A stretch of 64,000 bases of DNA from Candidatus Omnitrophota bacterium (GCA_028693815.1 JAQUUP010000002.1:7056-71055); one strand, 5' to 3'; counted from the stretch's first letter, positions 4,546 through 27,476 are shown. Numbers and translations: made by a program. The notes: generated by a model not told the origin, from the sequence alone.

Positions 4546-5094
4546 ATGAACAATCCGTACTATTATCTTATTTCGAGTTTGCCGATGTTAGACTTTGATA
4601 AAGAAGCCAATCTTTCTTATCAAGAGTTTTTTGATCTTTGCAAAGAACAGCTAAGCGATAGCGATTTTAGAATTCTAGAGAAAGCCACTTTGGATTATGA
4701 TGATCCAACGCAGGAAAACCATGTATTAAACGGTTGGGCAAAGTTTAATCGAAGATTTAGAAATGAAATGATTCGTATTCGTGCAAAAAATCAATCAAGA
4801 GATTCTTCTGATTATATTCGAGGAGATCGTTACGTAGACGCGTCTTCTATCGAAGTAATAAACCGTGCGTTAAAAGCGGAAAATCCTTTGGAAGCAGAAA
4901 AAATGTTGGATCGTTTTAAATGGAAGAGATTAAGCGAATTTATCAAGCGGGATATTTTTCATGTTGAGGCGTTGATTATTTATAGTTTGCATCTCCAAAT
5001 TTTAGAACGATACAAGACAATCAATTCTTCTCAAGGCAAAGAAAGATTCGAAGAATATAAACAATCAAAAGTACTGCAGTTAGTTTCAAAATAA
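4546..5094 (+). CDS. Hypothetical protein occupying the V-ATPase subunit C/F position (CT309/BB0095-like)
   Basis: No recognisable motif. Conserved position between atpE and atpA, as in chlamydial and spirochaetal V-ATPase operons. Confidence 0.4.
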   Translation: MNNPYYYLISSLPMLDFDKEANLSYQEFFDLCKEQLSDSDFRILEKATLDYDDPTQENHVLNGWAKFNRRFRNEMIRIRAKNQSRDSSDYIRGDRYVDASSIEVINRALKAENPLEAEKMLDRFKWKRLSEFIKRDIFHVEALIIYSLHLQILERYKTINSSQGKERFEEYKQSKVLQLVSK

Positions 5095-5097
5095 TTC

Positions 5098-5192
5098 TTA
5101 AGGAAACCCCGCGTCGCTTAAAGGCGTTCCTGGGGTAAATTCGCATAGCAACTTGCGAGCACTAACGTTCCGCAAGATTGCGTGCTCATTTA
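5098..5192 (+). repeat. Intergenic structured repeat element, copy A (5' of atpA)
   Basis: Shares the 5' module CCCCGCGTCGCTTAAA..GGGGTAAATTCGC, a hairpin CTTGCG-AGCACTAACGTTC-CGCAAG, and the 3' end GTGCTCATTTAGG with other copies. Confidence 0.5.
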
Positions 5193-8235: not shown

Positions 8236-8237
8236 AT

Positions 8238-8322
8238 TAGGGAAAGCCCGCGTCGCTTAAAACCGCTTCTGCTGCTTCGTTTTGCAAGCAAAAGCGAAGC
8301 AAAGCGACAGGGGCTCATTTAA
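8238..8322 (+). repeat. Intergenic structured repeat element, copy B (5' of atpD)
   Basis: Same termini (CCCGCGTCGCTTAAA ... GGGGCTCATTTAA) but a different internal hairpin (GCTTCG-TTTTGCAAGCAAAA-GCGAAGC). Confidence 0.5.
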
Positions 8323-11258: not shown

Positions 11259-11334
11259 GGGCGATTAGCTCAGTTGGTTAGAGCATCTGACTTACATTCA
11301 GAGGGTCGGGGGTTCGAGTCCTCCATTGCCCACC
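11259..11334 (+). tRNA. tRNA-Val (anticodon TAC)
   Basis: Hand-folded cloverleaf: acceptor GGGCGAT/ATTGCCC, D-stem GCTC/GAGC, anticodon stem TCTGA/TCAGA with loop CTTACAT, T-arm GGGGG-TTCGAGT-CCTCC, encoded CCA. Confidence 0.9.
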
Positions 11335-11360: not shown

Positions 11361-11438
11361 GGACCCGTGGTGTAGCTTGGTTAACATGTCAGATTGTCGA
11401 TCTGAAGATCGCGAGTTCAAATCTCGTCGGGTCCGCCA
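11361..11438 (+). tRNA. tRNA-Asp (anticodon GTC)
   Basis: Acceptor GGACCCG/CGGGTCC, anticodon stem TCAGA/TCTGA with loop TTGTCGA, T-loop TTCAAAT, encoded CCA. Confidence 0.9.
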
Positions 11439-11444
11439 TATAAA

Positions 11445-11484
11445 GAAAGCACTTGTCCCATTTGGGGCAAGTGCTTTCTTATTC
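11445..11484 (+). terminator. Rho-independent terminator after the tRNA pair
   Basis: Stem AGAAAGCACTTGTCCC / GGGCAAGTGCTTTCT with loop ATTT, followed by a T-rich tail. Confidence 0.6.
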
Positions 11485-14229: not shown

Positions 14230-14487
14230 TTATACTTCTTTTAATTTACAATTAAAGATATCGAGAATCATTATTGCGGCAATTAAAATAGCGCAGAGGA
14301 CAGGAGACAAGCCTTTGCTTAAAAGAACGATTACGCCTGTGGATAAGGCGATTGCAATGCAAAGCTGTAAATCCCATTTTCTGGCAAGAGCTGCACCGCA
14401 TTTTTCGCATTTTATGTAAGGGTATGCGCGCACGCGTATCCAGAGTCTAAATGGTGATATAGGATTAGAACATCTAGGACATTTCAT
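14230..14487 (-). CDS. Small zinc-ribbon membrane protein (CxxC..CxxC plus 2 TM)
   Basis: N-terminus MKCPRCSNP...CEKCGAAL then hydrophobic helices. Its ATG (14487-14485) overlaps the TGA of the upstream gene (ATGA), implying translational coupling. Confidence 0.5.
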   Translation of the reverse strand: MKCPRCSNPISPFRLWIRVRAYPYIKCEKCGAALARKWDLQLCIAIALSTGVIVLLSKGLSPVLCAILIAAIMILDIFNCKLKEV

Positions 14488-16112
14488 TTGTTCTCCTTTC
14501 GTTTCAAAATTTTTACCGCATGATACCATGCCCACCCGGGCTCATTTCCCCAATTTCCAAATGTTTCAACAGCGGTGAAGTTTTCATCAATATATTTTTT
14601 CAAAACAGGGCAATAGGTTTTTCCAAATGTTCCAAGGCCGGCCTCTTTTGAGTCAGAGCGGCTAGACAAAACAATATAGGCAGCATTGTTTTCTTTTAAA
14701 TCAGAAATAATGGCTCGTTCTTGTTCTTGTGGAATATTAATATAATCAAAAAAGATGAGTTCTCGAGTCGGGCTTTTTTTATTTGTTAGAAAATAATAAA
14801 GCGAATCATAAGGGAGTGCAAGAAAGGTTTCATCTTTGTTCACATTTTTCTTGAGATAGTCGACAGAAGAAGTAACCGTATTAATCCAAGAAGGTGGATT
14901 TTCAATATAAACTTTTGTTTTGTTGATTTGTAGCAAATGATTATTATTTTTATACAGAGCGACGATTTTATGTTGTTGCACAGCGCTTGTTAAGGCAACA
15001 ATAAGAAAGATTATATAGATTGAGAATCTAATAACTTTAGATAAATTTTTGATGGCATATTCAATGATGAGAAAAATAAAAAGCATTTGAAAAGGGTTGA
15101 CCCAGCGCATGCGATAAACGATAGCGCTTGCAAAGAATTCGTGAAGACCAAAAAATATAAATAAAATTAAAGAAATAAGAAACAAAAAGAATTCTTTTGT
15201 TTTGTTTTCTTGACTGTTTTTTAGCATTGCTTGAATTGAACGAAAGCCGCAAAGAAAAATAATTATGGCAAAAATACGGTTGGGCAAAGACCACGATGTT
15301 ATATTCCAGAGGACGACGCGCCATAGTTTTACGAGAGACATCCAAATGCTCGCGTGAGTTGGGTCGTAGGATGGAAGATAAGGAAAACATTGTTTGATAA
15401 AATATATTGGCAAGTTTCGTGTAAGTAGCCAATAAATCAAGAACGCCAAGGCTGGAATGCCGAGCAGCGAAAGGATGTAGATTTTCTTATTTTGGATCTT
15501 TTTTTCTTTAATGTAGTCAGTTAGAGCAAAAGTTATCAGGGTGGATAACAGAAAGAAAAATCCCATGTTGGCTTTAATCAAGAAAATTGTAGAAATTGAT
15601 AACAATGTGGCATAAATAAATTTCTTCTGACAAGATTGAATGTAGTGGGCGATAAAAAACATCGTGAGAATAAAGAAAGGAATGGCACCTGTGTGATTGT
15701 AGGTATAAAAAAATTCGGGTCGAAAAGCCAAAAACCAAACTGTAGCGGCCATAGCCATCATGGGCGAGGCAAAAAGAGAAATTGTTAGATAAAAAAGAAT
15801 GCCTGCAATAAGGATGAGAAAGATTTTGGCGATCAAAATGCTTTGAATGCTTATGCCAAGAATTTTATAAGCGCTGGCATAATAATATGGCATAGCTGGT
15901 CCATAGACCCACCAGTAGTCTTCATAAGGGGTTGATCCTTCAAGGGTTGAGCGAAAGGCATAAAGATCGCGACCATGATCTCCTTGCGCTAAGATAGGCT
16001 GAAAGTTGGCGTAAGGTGCTAGGATGAATATTCCTAGAATGCAAGTAAGGACTAGAAGAAGAATTTTCTGATTTTTAGATAAAAAAGTAGATAAAAGTTG
16101 TATTTTTTTCAT
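14484..16112 (-). CDS. Polytopic membrane protein with periplasmic C-terminal domain, GT-C (ArnT/PMT-like) glycosyltransferase candidate
   Basis: Roughly 11-13 TM helices, with an acidic/aromatic first loop (QGDHGRDLY...EDYWWVYGP) and a ~150-aa soluble C-terminus. Family assignment is tentative. Start taken at MKKIQLL. Confidence 0.45.
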   Translation of the reverse strand: MKKIQLLSTFLSKNQKILLLVLTCILGIFILAPYANFQPILAQGDHGRDLYAFRSTLEGSTPYEDYWWVYGPAMPYYYASAYKILGISIQSILIAKIFLILIAGILFYLTISLFASPMMAMAATVWFLAFRPEFFYTYNHTGAIPFFILTMFFIAHYIQSCQKKFIYATLLSISTIFLIKANMGFFFLLSTLITFALTDYIKEKKIQNKKIYILSLLGIPALAFLIYWLLTRNLPIYFIKQCFPYLPSYDPTHASIWMSLVKLWRVVLWNITSWSLPNRIFAIIIFLCGFRSIQAMLKNSQENKTKEFFLFLISLILFIFFGLHEFFASAIVYRMRWVNPFQMLFIFLIIEYAIKNLSKVIRFSIYIIFLIVALTSAVQQHKIVALYKNNNHLLQINKTKVYIENPPSWINTVTSSVDYLKKNVNKDETFLALPYDSLYYFLTNKKSPTRELIFFDYINIPQEQERAIISDLKENNAAYIVLSSRSDSKEAGLGTFGKTYCPVLKKYIDENFTAVETFGNWGNEPGWAWYHAVKILKRKENK

Positions 16113-16232
16113 AGTAAACAAAGGAGTTGTCGAAGCACTGTATTTAATGGTAACATTGGCACATCTGTCATTCAAGTGCTTTTCTAAAGAAAGCCCTTGT
16201 GGTAGAATGATTCGTCAAATTTAACTTTAACA

Positions 16233-16320
16233 GAAAGGCTCCGACACGCTTCGCGTGCGGAGTTAATTCGGGCATGTAACTTATGAGCACTAGCGTTCCA
16301 TAAGTTACGCCCTTATTAAA
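16233..16320 (+). repeat. Intergenic structured repeat element, copy C (5' of the tRNA-binding protein gene)
   Basis: Hairpin CTCCG-ACACGCTTCGCGTG-CGGAG plus TTAATTCGG, then hairpin CTTATG-AGCACTAGCGTTC-CATAAG, ending ...TTATTAAAGGAG. Confidence 0.5.
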
Positions 16321-16330
16321 GGAGTTTTTT

Positions 16331-16651
16331 ATGATTAATTTTAAAGATTTTCAGAATCTTGAGCTTATTGTCGCTCAAATTGTAGAAGTTAAAGAACATC
16401 CTAACGCGGATAAGCTTTATGTGCTTAAAATCAACACAGGCAAAGAAGAAAAACAGATTGTGGCTGGAATTAGAAATGCGTATTCTAAAGAGGCTTTGCT
16501 GGGAAGAAAAATTATTGTTGTTAATAACTTAGAGCCTGTTGTACTCAGAGGTGAGGAATCAAATGGAATGCTTTTAGCCGCTTCGGATGACTTTGGCCCA
16601 TCTGTTTTATCGCCGGATCGTGATGTTAAAATCGGGAGCAGGGTTAAATAA
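16331..16651 (+). CDS. Standalone tRNA-binding domain protein (Trbp111/CsaA/MetRS-C-terminal Myf domain)
   Basis: Sequence LELIVAQIVEVKEHPNADKLYVLKINTGKEEKQIVAGIRN...IIVVNNLEPVVLRGEESNGMLLAA matches the OB-fold tRNA-binding domain consensus closely. Confidence 0.85.
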   Translation: MINFKDFQNLELIVAQIVEVKEHPNADKLYVLKINTGKEEKQIVAGIRNAYSKEALLGRKIIVVNNLEPVVLRGEESNGMLLAASDDFGPSVLSPDRDVKIGSRVK

Positions 16652-16661
16652 AAGGGTGAGT

Positions 16662-17135
16662 ATGGTTAACTTAAAACAATTTGTTGATCAAGAAACTTGT
16701 TTGGCGTGTAGGGGCTGTTGCCGATTTTATGAAGAAAAAAGTTTGTGGCGACCTAAGCTAACAAAACAAGAGGCGGCCTATGTTAGCGAAGAGATTATCG
16801 ACGAGGATTATCGTGTTAAAAGTGTTGTATCGGGTAGTCAGTATCTTTGCAGCTTTCTTGATGAAAAAACATCTCTTTGCCGAAAATATGTAGAGCGTCC
16901 TTTTGAATGCGTGCTTTATCCCTTCGTTTTAGTTAAAGATAATGATAAGGTAATGGTCGCTGTGCATTTAGCCTGTCCGTTTGTTCAAGAAAAAAGAGCG
17001 TCAGGTGAGTTTTCGCAATATCGTGAAAATCTAAAGAATTTTTTTAGTAGTGTTGAAGATAAGTCTGATATTAGCGCGTTGGCACAAGCGTATCCAGACG
17101 CTAGCCAAGAACTAGACATTTTATTCTCGATATGA
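16662..17135 (+). CDS. YkgJ-family (UPF0153) cysteine-cluster protein, putative Fe-S or Zn binding
   Basis: CLACRGCCRF plus the downstream Cys residues (LCSF, LCRKY, ECVLYPF, LACPF) typical of the YkgJ family. Start at MVNLKQ after a GGGTGAG Shine-Dalgarno. Confidence 0.6.
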   Translation: MVNLKQFVDQETCLACRGCCRFYEEKSLWRPKLTKQEAAYVSEEIIDEDYRVKSVVSGSQYLCSFLDEKTSLCRKYVERPFECVLYPFVLVKDNDKVMVAVHLACPFVQEKRASGEFSQYRENLKNFFSSVEDKSDISALAQAYPDASQELDILFSI

Positions 17136-18028
17136 GCCAAGACATATTTGCGCAAAGAAAAATTGTTGATCAGTTTTTGCAAAAGACTGGCTTTGAGCTT
17201 TCATCGTATTCATTTATTAATATTTTTGCATGGCAAGATTTCTTTGATTTTGAGTTTCAAGTGATAGATGAAAGACTGCTTGTTTTTGCTGGTAATGACT
17301 TGGGAAGCTTTCTTTATTTACCTCCTTTAGGGAAAGGCATTTCAAGAGAATGCGTTGACACCTGTTTCAGAATTTTAAATGAGAAAAATAATGGTAAAGG
17401 CGTTGGGCGTATTGAGAATGTGGAAGAAAAGGACTTGGGCCTTTTTGGTGAAAAAGATTTTGTTAGATTTGAGAAATCTAGAGAAACGGTTTATTCTCGA
17501 TGTGATATTGCAAACCTCCAAGGTAATCGATTTAAATCAAAGAGATCGTCTTATAATCATTTTGTTAAAAATTATAAGTTTGAATTTTGCCCGTATCGCG
17601 ACAGCATGAAAAAGAATTGTTTTTTGCTCTATGATCAATGGACAAAAAAGCGAAAAAAGAGAAATAGTGACGAGATCTATCAACAGATGATCGATGAAAG
17701 CGGTGTTGCTTTAAGACGTTGTTTAAATAATTTTCAAAATCTCGGTTTGATTGGATGTGTTGTTTTTGTTGAAGGTAGAATCGTTGGCTACAGTTTTGGG
17801 TTTGCTCTTAAGCAGGATGTTTTTTGCATTCTTTTTGAGATTGCTGATCTAGAAATGAAGGGACTTTCGACTTATCTTTTTAGTGAATTTTGTAAAATGA
17901 AGGCTGTTGAGTCGTTTAATTTTATAAATGTTATGGATGACTTTTCTCTAGACAATGTTCGGTCAACAAAATTATCGTTTAAACCGGCTAAGCAAATTAA
18001 AACGTATACTATTTCACAAAAGGATTAA
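17132..18028 (+). CDS. DUF2156-like protein (homolog of MprF C-terminal aminoacyl-tRNA-dependent transferase domain), tentative
   Basis: A ~300-aa soluble protein with SYSFINIFAWQDFFDF...FLYLPPLG, resembling the LPG_synthase_C/DUF2156 family. Assignment from memory of the family, not verified. ATGA overlap with the upstream gene. Confidence 0.4.
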   Translation: MSQDIFAQRKIVDQFLQKTGFELSSYSFINIFAWQDFFDFEFQVIDERLLVFAGNDLGSFLYLPPLGKGISRECVDTCFRILNEKNNGKGVGRIENVEEKDLGLFGEKDFVRFEKSRETVYSRCDIANLQGNRFKSKRSSYNHFVKNYKFEFCPYRDSMKKNCFLLYDQWTKKRKKRNSDEIYQQMIDESGVALRRCLNNFQNLGLIGCVVFVEGRIVGYSFGFALKQDVFCILFEIADLEMKGLSTYLFSEFCKMKAVESFNFINVMDDFSLDNVRSTKLSFKPAKQIKTYTISQKD

Positions 18029-18031
18029 TTG

Positions 18032-18586
18032 ATGCAAGATATTTTAGATAAAGAGTTTGTTATCTTTGACGTAGAAACAACAGGATTGTCGCCGGTAGGG
18101 GGAGACCGTATTGTTGAGATTGCAGCGCTGAAAGTAAGAAATTTAGAGCCTGTGGAGCGATTTCATTCTTTGATTAATCCGGATCGTTCTATTTCTCCCG
18201 GCGCGTTTGAAGTGAATCGGATTTCAGAGTCGATGCTTATCGATGCTCCAAGAAGCCATGAGATTTTACCAGCATTTCTAGAGTTTCTAGGAGATGCCAT
18301 TATCGTTGGGCACAACATCAATTTTGATTTAGGTTTTTTACGAAACGAGCTTAATTTAGCAGGTCTTGTGCCTGCAGAATCGTTTAATGCAGTAGACACT
18401 ATCCGGATTTCGAAGCGTGTGATGCCGCACTTAAAGCGATATCCTTTATGGTTTGTAGCAAGCAGCCTCGGTGTTGAGCGTAAACAATCTCATCGGGCTA
18501 TGGCGGATGTTGAAATGACATTTGAGGTTTTTTATAAACTTGTTCATCTTGCAAAAGAACAAAATATTTTATCCCAGATTTTGTGA
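18032..18586 (+). CDS. DEDDh-family 3'-5' exonuclease (DnaQ/RNase T-like)
   Basis: Exo I FVIFDVETTG, Exo II HNINFDLGFL, Exo III HRAMADVEMT. Starts immediately after the upstream stop. Confidence 0.8.
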   Translation: MQDILDKEFVIFDVETTGLSPVGGDRIVEIAALKVRNLEPVERFHSLINPDRSISPGAFEVNRISESMLIDAPRSHEILPAFLEFLGDAIIVGHNINFDLGFLRNELNLAGLVPAESFNAVDTIRISKRVMPHLKRYPLWFVASSLGVERKQSHRAMADVEMTFEVFYKLVHLAKEQNILSQIL

Positions 18587-18690
18587 AAGAAATAATGGTA
18601 ACCGGGATTACCTAACGCTTTTTTGATAAAATACTAGGGAAGGCTAATTTTGAACAATACGCAAAATTTGGGATTAAAGGAGATTTCTTT

Positions 18691-20103
18691 TTGAAAAAAA
18701 CGTTTTCGAAAACATATGATTTCTCAGGAAAAAGTGAGGATATTTTCTTGGCTTTTTCAGATGAACCGATGTTGTTTTTTTTAGATAGCAGTTTGAGCCA
18801 GCCGAGTCGAGGACGATTTTCTTTTATTGGATTTAAGCCTTTTGATATTGTTTCAGCAAGCGGAAAGAATTCTTTAGAAATGCTTCAAGATAAATTTGAT
18901 CAACATCAGATTTGTCTCGACAATCAATTAACACCTTTTTCTTCAGGGGCTGTTGGATTTTTAGGTTATGAACTTGGGGGTCAGTGGGAAGATATCCTTT
19001 TGCGTGAAAAGCCAGGGATATCTTTGCCAGATTGTTTTTTTGGATTTTATAATGGCGTTATTGCCATTGATCATGTTTTAAATAAGCTACATATTATTAC
19101 AACGGGAATTCCAGAGAAAAATGATTTGTTGAGAGAAAAGAAAGCCTTGGAAGATTTGCGCTATATTGAGAATCGGCTTAACAAAGAATATAAAGAAGAA
19201 AAAAAACAAGTTGTTGATTTTGATTTTTCAGAGGAATATTCGCAGTCTTCTGAGTTTTCAAGTAATTTTACGAAAGAAAAATATTTAGAAGCTGTTGATC
19301 GTGCGCTTGAATATATTCGTCAGGGCGATATTTATCAAGTCAATCTATCTCAAAGGTTTTTGCTTAAAAAGGATTTCTCAAATACTAAAGATTTGGCAAG
19401 GTTATATGTTTTTTTAAGAGCGATTTCTCCGTCGAGCTTTGGCTCTTATTTTGATGCAGGAGATTTTCAGATTATTAGCAGTTCCCCAGAAGAATTTTTG
19501 TGTAAGCGAGGCCAGCACATTGAAACAACGCCAATGAAAGGAACGCGGCCGCGATCACAAAATATTATTGATGATGAGATTTTTAAGCGAGATCTTTTAG
19601 AGAGCCCTAAGGAAAAGGCAGAGCTTTTGATGGTGACTGATTTAGAGCGTAACGATTTAGGAAAAGTGTGCTTGCCGGGTTCGGTTCGTGTTCGATCGAT
19701 GCGAACACTCGAAGAATATAGAACTGTTTTTCAGACAACATCAACCGTCGAGGGTGTGTTGGCAGAGAATAAAAATGTATTTGATATTTTAAGGGCATGT
19801 TTTCCATCTGGATCTGTAACGGGATGCCCAAAGATTCGTGCCATGCAAATTATTAATGAGCTTGAGCCTAATAAACGAGAAGCGTATACGGGATCTTTTG
19901 GGTATATTGGATTTGATGAGTCGATGGATTTTAATATTCTTATTCGAACTCTTGTTGCGAAAAAAGACAAATTGTCTTTTCATGTGGGTGGTGGTATTGT
20001 TGCTGATTCTATCGCGGAGAACGAATATGACGAAACGCTTTTAAAGGCACTTGCTTTGCGAAAAAGTATTTCTAGCATTTTCTTGGAGAAATTAGGAGTT
20101 TAA
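18691..20103 (+). CDS. pabB: Aminodeoxychorismate synthase component I (chorismate-binding enzyme)
   Basis: GDIYQVNLSQRF, MKGTRPR, LLMVTDLERNDLGKV and SGSVTGCPKIRAMQII are chorismate-utilising enzyme motifs. Probable TTG start after AAAGGAG. Confidence 0.75.
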   Translation: MKKTFSKTYDFSGKSEDIFLAFSDEPMLFFLDSSLSQPSRGRFSFIGFKPFDIVSASGKNSLEMLQDKFDQHQICLDNQLTPFSSGAVGFLGYELGGQWEDILLREKPGISLPDCFFGFYNGVIAIDHVLNKLHIITTGIPEKNDLLREKKALEDLRYIENRLNKEYKEEKKQVVDFDFSEEYSQSSEFSSNFTKEKYLEAVDRALEYIRQGDIYQVNLSQRFLLKKDFSNTKDLARLYVFLRAISPSSFGSYFDAGDFQIISSSPEEFLCKRGQHIETTPMKGTRPRSQNIIDDEIFKRDLLESPKEKAELLMVTDLERNDLGKVCLPGSVRVRSMRTLEEYRTVFQTTSTVEGVLAENKNVFDILRACFPSGSVTGCPKIRAMQIINELEPNKREAYTGSFGYIGFDESMDFNILIRTLVAKKDKLSFHVGGGIVADSIAENEYDETLLKALALRKSISSIFLEKLGV

Positions 20104-20106
20104 TTG

Positions 20107-20949
20107 ATGGAGAAAAAAGTTATTTTTTTAGATGGGTTTATGATTCCGGTAACGCATTCATGGTCTAAGATGTTGTCTCCAGGGATTTTGTCTGGTGCTG
20201 GCGTTTTTGAAACGATGCGTTCTTATCAAGGAGAGGTGTTTGCTTTTGAAGAACATTTAAAAAGGCTTTACGATGGGCTCAAGACATTAAAAATGATCGC
20301 ACCTTGCACAAAAAAGGAGATGATCAAATATCTTAAAGCATCTCTTGAGGCAAACAAATTAAAGAATGCGCGCATTCGTCTCATGGTTTGGAAGGCAAAG
20401 GAAAAGACAAGAATTTCAATAGCTGTTTTTCCCTATCATCCTTTTTCAAAAGATAAATATAATCAAGGGCTTAAGGCTATTTTTTCAGATATTCGAAGAG
20501 ATGAAGAATCAGTTACTTCAAGGATTAAAACAGTTAACTATTTACCGCTTTTAATGGCACAAAGAAAAGCAAAAGCACGCGGCAATGATGAAGCCATTCT
20601 TTTGAATCGCAAAGGATTTGTTGTTGAAGGTAGTAAGAGCAATATCTTTTTTGTGAAAGACCAGAAACTTTATACGCCGGCGCTTAAAAGTGGCTGTCTC
20701 AATGGGATTACCCGTCAGATTATTATAAAGATTGCGCACAAGATGGATATGGACTGCAAGGAGGTTTTAGTTCTTCCAGATGATTTGATTGAGGCGAAGG
20801 AGGCTTTTTTGACTAATTCTTTGATGGAAATTATGCCTTTGACATTTGTGCAAGGGAAAATGATTGGCTCTGGAAAAGCGGGACCGGTTACCAATAAAAT
20901 TCTTCGTGCTTATCGAAAAGAAATCCGTAGCCGCTTGCATCAGATTTAA
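20107..20949 (+). CDS. pabC: Aminodeoxychorismate lyase / class IV aminotransferase
   Basis: Class IV PLP fold (ETMRSYQGEVFAFEEHLKRL, NIFFVKDQKLYTP), adjacent to pabB. Confidence 0.65.
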   Translation: MEKKVIFLDGFMIPVTHSWSKMLSPGILSGAGVFETMRSYQGEVFAFEEHLKRLYDGLKTLKMIAPCTKKEMIKYLKASLEANKLKNARIRLMVWKAKEKTRISIAVFPYHPFSKDKYNQGLKAIFSDIRRDEESVTSRIKTVNYLPLLMAQRKAKARGNDEAILLNRKGFVVEGSKSNIFFVKDQKLYTPALKSGCLNGITRQIIIKIAHKMDMDCKEVLVLPDDLIEAKEAFLTNSLMEIMPLTFVQGKMIGSGKAGPVTNKILRAYRKEIRSRLHQI

Positions 20950-22365: not shown

Positions 22366-22528
22366 ATACTTCGACACGTTTCACGTGCGGAGTAAATTCG
22401 CAGTTCTAAGTTATAGGTTTTTTTAGATCTTAGAGTTTAATTGCTCATTAGCCCCGCTTAGCGGGGTAAATTCGCCCAGCAAACTTACGCTCACTAACGC
22501 TCGCGTAAGCTTGGGGCTCATTTAAGGA
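22366..22528 (+). repeat. Two tandem copies (D1, D2) of the intergenic structured repeat element, 5' of lrp
   Basis: D1: CTTCG-ACACGTTTCACGTG-CGGAG plus TAAATTCGC ... TTGCTCATTA. D2: GCCCCGC-TTAG-CGGGG plus TAAATTCGC, hairpin CTTACG-CTCACTAACGCTCG-CGTAAG, ending GGGGCTCATTTAAGGAGG. Confidence 0.5.
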
Positions 22529-27014: not shown

Positions 27015-27059
27015 GAATTGATATATTTTAAGTGAAGCCATGATGGATAGGTGATATTT

Positions 27060-27476
27060 ATGAAAAGTTACAAACAAGAGCTTTGGTTTTCAACGGAACA
27101 AAGGCGAGAATATATTAATATTACGGATGTTGTTCAAAAGGCAATTGATAAAAGCGGAATCAAAGAAGGGCTGTGTCTTGTCAATGCCATGCATATCACT
27201 TCTAGCGTTTTTATTAATGATGATGAGCGTGGCCTTATTCAGGATTTTGATGATTGGCTTGAAAAGCTTGCTCCGCACGAGCCGGTTTCAAGTTATCGGC
27301 ACAATACAGGAGAAGATAACGCTGATGGTCATATGAAGCGTCAGATTATGGGGCGAGAAGTGGTTGTGGCTGTGACGCAAGGACGTCTTGATTTTGGCCC
27401 GTGGGAGCAGATTTTCTATGGGGAATTTGATGGGCGAAGGAAAAAGAGGGCGTTGATAAAAATTATTGGTGAATAA
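27060..27476 (+). CDS. yjbQ: YjbQ/UPF0047 family protein (secondary thiamine-phosphate synthase-like)
   Basis: Sequence [18 protein letters not shown]...[35 protein letters not shown] is the YjbQ signature. Confidence 0.75.

Follow-up and report, generated by a model that had tools for sequence, protein, structure and literature searches.

The question raised by this locus is whether four tightly packed genes of a Candidatus Omnitrophota metagenome-assembled genome (g1 to g4, 16331-18586, all on the plus strand) work as one tRNA-centred system. They lie in a stretch of 64,000 nt, hereafter the window, to which coordinates refer unless another locus is named. A sequence-only reading had taken them for a coupled cassette of a tRNA-binding protein (g1), a YkgJ-type Cys-cluster protein (g2), a DUF2156 transferase resembling the MprF C-terminal domain (g3), and a DEDDh exonuclease (g4). 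The four domain assignments (PF01588, PF03692, PF09924, and PF00929, respectively) were all above thresholds, and the head-to-tail order, with a 10-nt gap, an ATGA overlap, and a start adjacent to a stop, was confirmed from the sequence. From comparative analysis, however, the functional unit is the gene pair g2 and g3, not the four-gene cassette. As the best explanation for this pair, to which we give an even chance, g2 and g3 would make up a two-part or fused soluble aminoacyl-tRNA transferase, in which g2 shapes or gates the acceptor site.

Conservation of the g2-g3 pair

Scanning one genome for each species gave 66 loci that contain a relative of g3; onto these the window proteins were mapped by tblastn, and open reading frames (ORFs) were called and clustered. 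Nineteen loci labelled Nitrospirota were counted as such, and the remaining 47 have their genes in the Omnitrophota order; the denominators given here are informative loci and vary by gene. Over these loci and two phyla only g2-g3 was constant, and the earlier idea that all four genes co-occur as one system did not hold. Indeed, in 58/60 loci (44/46 from Omnitrophota, 14/14 from Nitrospirota) g2 directly precedes g3 on the same strand, and both genes are fused in one ORF in 15 loci, 10 from Omnitrophota and five from Nitrospirota. The Nitrospirota surroundings of the pair (Slp lipoprotein, CbbQ/NorQ, VWA protein, TerB) are unrelated to those found in Omnitrophota. Since g2 and g3 are fused and adjacent in two phyla with unrelated surroundings, they form a module, and fusion together with adjacency across both phyla establishes that the two genes are functionally coupled. 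As a side observation, many of the 47 loci with the Omnitrophota order are labelled 'uncultured Planctomycetales', which looks like a labelling problem.

The fusions extend beyond the surveyed loci. PF03692 and PF09924 were carried on one protein in 7 of the 120 best g3 homologues, and a profile of the fusion, searched against 1.84 billion representatives (50% clustering), gave 416 matches at E<=1e-30. At least 60 of the best 150 representatives were fusions of at least 400 aa, with an N-terminal CxxCxxCC motif and a C-terminal DUF2156 domain, and about 10 more of these 150 were N-terminally truncated. No tRNA_bind or DEDDh domain fused to g2 or g3 was seen among the best 120 g3 homologues or the best 150 representatives.

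The plainest account of the locus would be that there is no module, and that four unrelated housekeeping genes are packed side by side in a streamlined genome. In its favor, the genome is compact and strand-biased: 51/55 ORFs of the window are on the plus strand, and same-strand neighbours stand a median of 18 nt apart, with 21/48 junctions of at most 12 nt. In addition, gene order is kept across Omnitrophota over a long block whose genes are unrelated. This block, of about 12 kb, contains V/A-ATPase subunits, a divergent GT-C-like membrane protein, g1, in some cases a UPF0047 gene, g2, g3, and in some cases g4, and continues with pabB, pabC, an unknown secreted protein, an AsnC regulator, an aminotransferase, a TPR protein, and at times PfkB. 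Because the genome is compact and the block is syntenic across the phylum, the tight spacing of g1 to g4 says little. Packing cannot explain, however, the repeated fusion of g2 and g3 or their adjacency in a second phylum with a different neighbourhood, and this account has a very slight chance of being correct; for g2-g3 it is refuted by the fusions, for g4 it stays the default, and for g1 it may hold.

At the other extreme, all four genes could constitute a tRNA-centred system, in which the Trbp111-type g1 would deliver tRNA, the DUF2156 protein would transfer the amino acid, the YkgJ protein would assist, and the DEDDh exonuclease would trim or recycle the tRNA 3' end. The genes are co-directional, with junctions of 10, -4, and 0 nt and zero terminator-like sites inside; g1 is found upstream on the same strand, within 6 kb of g3, in 40/44 Omnitrophota loci, and g4 adjoins g3 in 25/47; moreover, a tRNA-elbow clamp beside DUF2156 has a precedent in ErdS (PMC13219428). 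Nevertheless, g1 (0/14), g4 (0/16), and the pabB-pabC genes (0) are absent from the 14 to 16 informative Nitrospirota loci that retain g2-g3. Within Omnitrophota, g1 is at most 200 nt from g2 in only 24 loci, and the g1-g2 junction is interrupted in about 16, by UPF0047 or larger genes. Likewise, g4 is missing in 22/47 loci, with pabB then directly after g3 (pabB-pabC are downstream of g3 in 35/47 loci, directly after it in 18). Furthermore, the region of about 12 kb is syntenic throughout the phylum, tight gaps are usual in this genome, fusions of tRNA_bind or DEDDh domains with g2 or g3 are lacking among the homologues inspected, the closest relatives of g4 are PolC/DnaQ domains for DNA proofreading, and g1 has a mean identity of 65% to the window protein, as expected of a housekeeping gene, against 37% for g2 and 42% for g3. 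We therefore give the four-gene system only a small chance. When per-gene identities were correlated across loci, including a partial correlation controlled for pabB, g1, g2, and pabC could not be told apart in how they relate to g3, and this test was dropped. In brief, g1, g4, and pabBC look like lineage-specific neighbours, and g1 is dispensable for the g2-g3 module.

Fold of g3, cysteines of g2, and the proposed reaction

The resemblance of g3 to the C-terminal domain of MprF, noted from the sequence at the outset, was borne out by a full-length match to PF09924 (DUF2156/LPG_synthase_C; E 2.1e-21, 76.7 bits against a cutoff of 27.5, profile 9-297 of 298). A family profile built from 79 sequences matched 2HQY at 5e-39 to 9e-40, and no other PDB entry at E up to 10. 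The AlphaFold2 model of g3, based on an alignment of 79 sequences (pLDDT 93.6, pTM 0.90), comprises two alpha/beta lobes joined by a helix (residues 132-147), and model and Foldseek search together identify a tandem GNAT fold. In this search against the PDB, the matches were, in order, 2HQY (TM-score 0.85), MprF synthase domains (0.61-0.69), Sba18/Sbb17, which are peptide synthases dependent on aminoacyl-tRNA (0.54-0.57), and FemX (0.64). Aminoacyl-tRNA-dependent transfer is a reasonable reading for g3 because PF09924 covers its full length and its model matches MprF, Sbb17, and FemX; what the sequence-only reading had proposed along these lines survives for g3 by family and fold, not for a four-part system. 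No flippase domain is present in g3, which consists of the synthase-like domain only (298 aa), and the gene before it encodes the soluble g2. Since it is devoid of an N-terminal multi-pass membrane domain, g3 is not an MprF; it is a PF09924 member with a new obligate partner, g2.

The inter-lobe helix of g3 is basic (NRFKSKRSSYNHFVKN) and strongly conserved in the 79 sequences, K135 being invariant and K137, R138, Y141, and N142 being kept in at least 90%. A basic inter-lobe helix is the acceptor-stem-binding element common to aminoacyl-tRNA transferases, and its neutralisation kills ErdS and ErgS (PMC6103681, PMC7334510, PMC13219428). About 35 residues after the helix, W170 is invariant in the family and is followed at +4 by an Arg in the majority of sequences. 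In ErdS, W785 and R789 line the CCA pocket (PMC13219428), and the equal spacing of the two pairs, which is a likeness of spacing and not of alignment, is offered as a lead only. In addition, GNAT I of g3 has many invariant aromatic residues (F28, W34, F38, F40, F60, and Y62), which may suit a hydrophobic or aromatic acceptor or may simply be core residues.

For g2, PF03692 (YkgJ/CxxCxxCC) was matched with an E-value of 1.9e-9 (38.5 bits; cutoff 23). The protein has eight cysteines, namely the CxxCxxCC motif (C13, C16, C19, and C20) plus C63, C73, C83, and C105. The first seven do not vary across 50 homologues, which tblastn recovered from the loci, and in seven fusions C105 is likewise invariant. 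From this layout, we infer that g2 has enough cysteines for two Cys4 metal sites, which would hold Fe-S and/or Zn. Among solved structures none matched g2, and at E up to 10 only PF03692 was significant as a family, the FliB and DUF3109 models giving no match; nor was a SAM (S-adenosylmethionine)-binding motif identified in its 157 aa. Among proteins with comparable cysteine motifs, FliB binds one [4Fe-4S] cluster and methylates lysine with SAM (PMC8598068), and DpdM, described as a YkgJ homologue, methylates the aminomethyl group of preQ1 and has two Cys4 metal sites (3+1 and 1+3) predicted from AlphaFold2 models (bioRxiv 10.1101/2023.04.13.536721). In the eukaryotic transferase ATE1, a CX2CXnCC domain at the N-terminus, which binds either Zn or an O2-sensitive [4Fe-4S] cluster, maintains an open substrate cleft and is in contact with the 3' end of the tRNA (PMC9884297, PMC10115844).

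In this context, we propose that g3 takes the aminoacyl group from a charged tRNA, the acceptor stem of which would be bound by helix 132-147, and that the aminoacyl-CCA end would be received in the GNAT II pocket around W170. The amino acid would then pass to an acceptor bound where the two lobes meet, with a lipid, a small-molecule amine or hydroxyl, and a peptide as candidates. Carrying Fe-S and/or Zn, g2 would dock on g3 as an obligate partner, in trans in the window and in cis in the fusions, where it would either form or gate the cleft for the acceptor and the tRNA 3' end or couple activity to redox or iron status, by comparison with ATE1.

Several observations weigh against this proposal. 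MprF chains were not matched by the g3 family profile in the PDB at E up to 10, and acyl-CoA-dependent tandem GNATs appear further down the same Foldseek list. Several fusions have long Pro-rich linkers, and consequently a rigid g2-g3 interface is not assured, and the model of the fusion reached a pTM of 0.71, which is only moderate. The analogy with ATE1 is one of architecture, not of homology. Locus L034 (5651-6885) has g1 followed by g3 after a 33-nt gap, with no g2 in the locus, and in L013 (3741-6894) a distance of 1.6 kb, with three small ORFs, separates g3 from the upstream g2. Finally, the neighbouring genes in Omnitrophota and Nitrospirota give no hint of the acceptor. Indeed, a PABA (para-aminobenzoate)-related acceptor suggested by pabB/pabC, a lipid-linked one suggested by the GT-C protein, and a beta-amino acid suggested by KamA were considered and not adopted, because these neighbours are not common to both phyla.

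Some of the same data would suit an enzyme independent of tRNA, in which g3 uses acyl-CoA or another activated acyl donor on a metabolite or a protein, with g2 as a metal-containing accessory. Clavulanate ORF14, VipF, glucosamine N-acetyltransferase, and MshD were all recovered in the fold search with g3, and 2HQY, the nearest relative with a solved structure, is of no known function and adjoins an ordinary GNAT in Bacteroides. Moreover, in Nitrospirales (10/14 Nitrospirota loci) the pair is adjoined by a divergent cluster that encodes a radical SAM aminomutase of the KamA family, like lysine 2,3-aminomutase (425 bits), a glutaredoxin-like protein of 83 aa, and an unannotated protein of about 466 aa. 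This neighbourhood is reminiscent of the AblA/AblB pair for beta-lysine acetylation. The cluster is the only hint of a possible beta-amino-acid connection, and its link to g2-g3 may be mere synteny, as the loci are closely related to one another. With a full-length PF09924 match and a model that matches MprF, Sbb17, and FemX on the side of tRNA-dependent transfer, we regard the acyl-CoA-type enzyme as unlikely.

A different role for g2 provides the most interesting alternative. It would itself be catalytic, as a metal-dependent N-methyltransferase of the FliB/DpdM kind, in a two-step pathway with g3, methylating either the acceptor's amine ahead of transfer or the amine left free on the aminoacyl group once g3 has installed it. 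The only characterised proteins with such a Cys cluster, FliB and DpdM, both methylate primary amines (PMC8598068; bioRxiv 10.1101/2023.04.13.536721), g2 likewise has eight cysteines in a 4+4 sequence layout, and consecutive steps of a pathway are typical cases of gene fusion. Against this, g2 is small and matches PF03692 and neither FliB nor DUF3109, no SAM-binding motif was identified in it, and its relation to FliB and DpdM is that stated in the papers on those proteins. We consider a methyltransferase role quite improbable, and prefer the soluble aminoacyl-tRNA transferase with g2 as a shaping or gating partner.

Flanking genes and upstream region

The two flanking genes are ordinary members of their families, g1 probably of the Trbp111/MetRS-C type and g4 of the DnaQ/PolC type, and their sequences show no tie to g2-g3. 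For g1, PF01588 (tRNA_bind) was matched at E 3.4e-31 (107.7 bits; cutoff 27), and both TIGR00399 metG_C_term (111.3 bits; cutoff 116.65) and the 'tRNA-binding protein' model NF007492 (87 bits; cutoff 150) fell below their cutoffs. In the PDB, the C-domain of MetRS (1MKH, 5e-30) was closest, followed by Trbp111 (1PYB, 1e-21) and CsaA (1e-6). The fold had been called Trbp111/CsaA-type at first; the tRNA_bind domain stands, most likely of Trbp111/MetRS-C type, and an identity as CsaA was rejected (TIGR02222, 52.5 against 119.65; NF007496, 34.6 against 171). By analogy with the tRNA-retaining elements of ErdS, g1 may serve the transferase in Omnitrophota as a trans-acting tRNA clamp; a housekeeping Trbp111/tRNA chaperone or a split MetRS domain could fit the data equally well.

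Regarding g4, PF00929 (RNase_T) was matched at E 6.7e-37 (128 bits; cutoff 24), and the motifs FDVETTG, HNINFD, and HRAMAD, read from the translation, are those of a DEDDh exonuclease. TIGR00573 dnaq (104.7; cutoff 71.5), PolC/DEDD models (up to 1.6e-45), a PHROG 'DNA polymerase exonuclease subunit' (3e-52), the PolC-type exonuclease 2P1J (1.5e-29), and DnaQ 8H18 (1.4e-22) all point to the proofreading type. The nine PDB matches at E up to 1e-10 were DNA polymerase exonucleases, DnaQ, DinG, and Cas2-DEDDh, and the 25 best NCBIfam matches were all of the PolC/DnaQ/DinG type, on which an identity as RNase T was rejected. Thus, of the initial description of g4 as an RNase T/DnaQ-type exonuclease, the DEDDh domain of DnaQ/PolC type was retained, and tRNA-end processing found no support, the best matches being PolC/DnaQ proofreading exonucleases. 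Most probably, g4 is a proofreading-type exonuclease and a facultative neighbour that merely sits in the syntenic block.

Features of the window and of related loci are listed in Table 1. A longer ORF for g2, which starts at 16587 and overlaps g1, was rejected. The pabB-like and pabC-like genes are part of the block conserved in Omnitrophota, and in loci without g4 they come right after g3. The membrane protein divergent from g1 had a weak match to PF13231 (5.5e-4), below the cutoff, and its number of transmembrane segments was taken from a relative; homologues occur upstream in 29 loci, and the gene is conserved and at times tandem-duplicated in the Omnitrophota relatives. The UPF0047 (YjbQ-like) gene, which is located between g1 and g2 in relatives (e.g., L002, L016, L024, and L029), is about 10 kb downstream in the window, and has moved into or out of the g1-g2 junction during evolution. 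Elsewhere in the window, two tRNA genes between those for the V-ATPase c subunit and a metallophosphoesterase are followed by an 18-bp, near-perfect inverted repeat.

Table 1. Coordinates of the genes and other elements discussed (window positions, except for the last row).
Feature	Position	Strand	Remarks
g1	16331-16651	+	106 aa; AAGGAG Shine-Dalgarno 7 nt before ATG
g1/g2 gap	16652-16661		10 nt, AAAGGGTGAG
g2	16662-17135	+	157 aa; true start ATG 16662
g3	17132-18028	+	298 aa; ATGA stop/start overlap with g2
g4	18029 or 18032 to 18586	+	184-185 aa; TTG 18029 directly after TAA, or ATG 18032 with AAGGA upstream
pabB-like	18691-20103	+	downstream neighbour; Pfam/NCBIfam
class IV aminotransferase/pabC-like	20104-20949	+	downstream neighbour; Pfam/NCBIfam
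GT-C/PMT_2-like membrane protein	14484-16175	-	divergent from g1; ~10 transmembrane segments
TGGTAGAAT	16200-16208	+	candidate extended -10 promoter element for the g1-g4 transcript; read from sequence
two-hairpin intergenic repeat	16239-16312	+	5' untranslated region of g1
hairpin 1	16239-16262	+	then linker TTAATTCG
hairpin 2	16270-16312	+	loop AGCACTAGCGTTC
related repeat copy	5112-5185	+	
related repeat copy	22369-22520	+	two units
related repeat copy	8237-8320	+	degenerate
tRNA genes	11259-11332, 11361-11435	+	
inverted repeat	11443-11480		
UPF0047 gene	27051-27476		
KamA cluster (related loci)	~1-3.5 kb upstream of g2	-	L042, L044, L045, L047-L051, L053, L055

Upstream of g1, the presence of a copy of a structured repeat, as had been pointed out previously, proved real, with two hairpins and a minimum free energy z-score of -3.9. 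The related copies are modular, with a GC-rich hairpin joined through the linker (T/A)AAATTCG to another hairpin, the stem of which measures about 14 bp and the loop of which is a conserved 13 nt (AGCACTARCGTTC or CTCACTAACGCTC); the stems vary between copies with pairing retained. All copies are on the plus strand in gaps separating plus-strand genes, also inside the V/A-ATPase operon. The repeat looks like a REP (repetitive extragenic palindromic)- or MITE (miniature inverted-repeat transposable element)-like structured RNA element. An Rfam search of the whole window at gathering thresholds, and of 16100-16400 at E<=1, returned only the two tRNAs elsewhere, and a riboswitch, a T-box, or a known leader was rejected on the lack of any Rfam match at 16100-16400.

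The sequence TGGTAGAAT is a candidate promoter element of the g1-g4 transcript, and is also present upstream of g1 in the two closest relatives, L001 (~675-683) and L002 (~4617-4625). It was not called by a consensus promoter scan; a promoter and terminator scan of 16100-18750 gave counts at or below the shuffled expectation and zero terminators, and is uninformative. The repeat stands between this element and the Shine-Dalgarno sequence in the window and in L002, and is absent in L001. A conserved regulatory or operon leader was rejected, as the hairpins are missing from this closest relative; the two-hairpin element is an intergenic repeat, outside the enzyme module.

Significance and known systems compared

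DUF2156 enzymes divert charged tRNAs from translation to lipids (MprF, ErdS, and ErgS) or metabolites (VlmA), and the architectures described in the literature searched are flippase-fused (MprF), joined by fusion with an aminoacyl-tRNA synthetase (aaRS; LysX and ErdS), or free-standing (ErgS and VlmA) (PMC8913301, PMC7334510, PMC6103681). The pairing of YkgJ with DUF2156 was not mentioned in the full-text literature searched, and such proteins have only generic database names. It is nonetheless common: hundreds of representative clusters carry it, in two or more phyla whose members are mostly uncultured. If the transferase reading is correct, this would be a fourth DUF2156 architecture, probably with a new acceptor molecule, and a bacterial case of metal-cluster control over tRNA-dependent aminoacyl transfer, for which the only precedent is the eukaryotic ATE1. 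A bolder version, which we judge distinctly unlikely as a whole, is that YkgJ-DUF2156 represents a new class of metal-cluster-dependent aminoacyl-tRNA transferases of Omnitrophota, Nitrospirota, and relatives, making an aminoacylated lipid or metabolite not seen before, in which the eight cysteines would form an Fe-S redox/iron switch or a FliB/DpdM-like N-methyltransferase, and Trbp111 would have been recruited in Omnitrophota as a trans-acting clamp. The picture of a four-part tRNA cassette is corrected in any case, the exonuclease and probably the tRNA-binding protein being neighbours by synteny. Moreover, g2 and g3 are small and soluble, and the hypothesis is open to a direct test by heterologous expression.

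Among known proteins, the closest to g3 is 2HQY, a free-standing DUF2156 protein of the BT_3689 type from Bacteroides thetaiotaomicron, with a function not known and 23-25% identity to g3. In Bacteroides, the 2HQY-type gene sits between LrgAB and an Acetyltransf_9 GNAT, in the row LrgA-LrgB-DUF2156-GNAT (GNAT of 338 aa; L067/L068, 3809-6948), and P0214 (478 aa) is a DUF2156-GNAT fusion; this row and this fusion indicate that the 2HQY-type clade has a different conserved partner. No YkgJ gene was found next to the Bacteroides 2HQY-type gene, hence the pairing is not general for free-standing DUF2156 proteins.

The C-terminal domain of MprF (4V34-36, 6LV0, 5VRV, and 7DUW) shares with g3 the PF09924 family, the tandem GNAT, and the basic helix between the lobes, and MprF-type enzymes transfer the aminoacyl group from aminoacyl-tRNA to an acceptor hydroxyl (PMC6103681), which is the chemistry proposed for g3. 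In contrast, g3 has no flippase or membrane domain, and its identity of 8-16% and TM-scores of 0.61-0.69 denote a fold-level likeness only; a metal-cluster partner is not known for MprF, and a lipid is only one of the candidate acceptors for g3. Closer in being soluble DUF2156 proteins without a flippase are ErgS, a fungal free-standing enzyme that receives aminoacyl-tRNA from a separate synthetase, and ErdS, an AspRS-DUF2156 protein in which an extra tRNA-elbow-binding element keeps the tRNA in place (PMC8913301, PMC13219428). Such an elbow element is a role imaginable for g1; ErgS and ErdS differ, however, in their partner (an aaRS domain or helix), their acceptor (ergosterol), and their eukaryotic origin.

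VlmA and Sbb17/Sba18 (9WQW-9WQY) are small-molecule aminoacyl-tRNA transferases from actinomycete biosynthetic clusters, unlike g2-g3, which has no biosynthetic cluster around it and is a conserved phylum-wide pair. On the side of g2, FliB and DpdM share a Cys cluster with it, in g2 a PF03692 domain with CxxCxxCC and four further conserved cysteines; both are stand-alone methyltransferases, unlinked to GNAT or tRNA, and g2 has no match to their families. As to ATE1, it acts on protein N-termini in eukaryotes, has four cysteines against the eight of g2, is absent from the fold searches with g3, and, as far as tested, is not homologous to the pair; nevertheless, ATE1 and the YkgJ-DUF2156 fusions have the same order of modules, an N-terminal Cys-motif domain followed by a transferase domain of GNAT fold, in ATE1 an aminoacyl-tRNA transferase.

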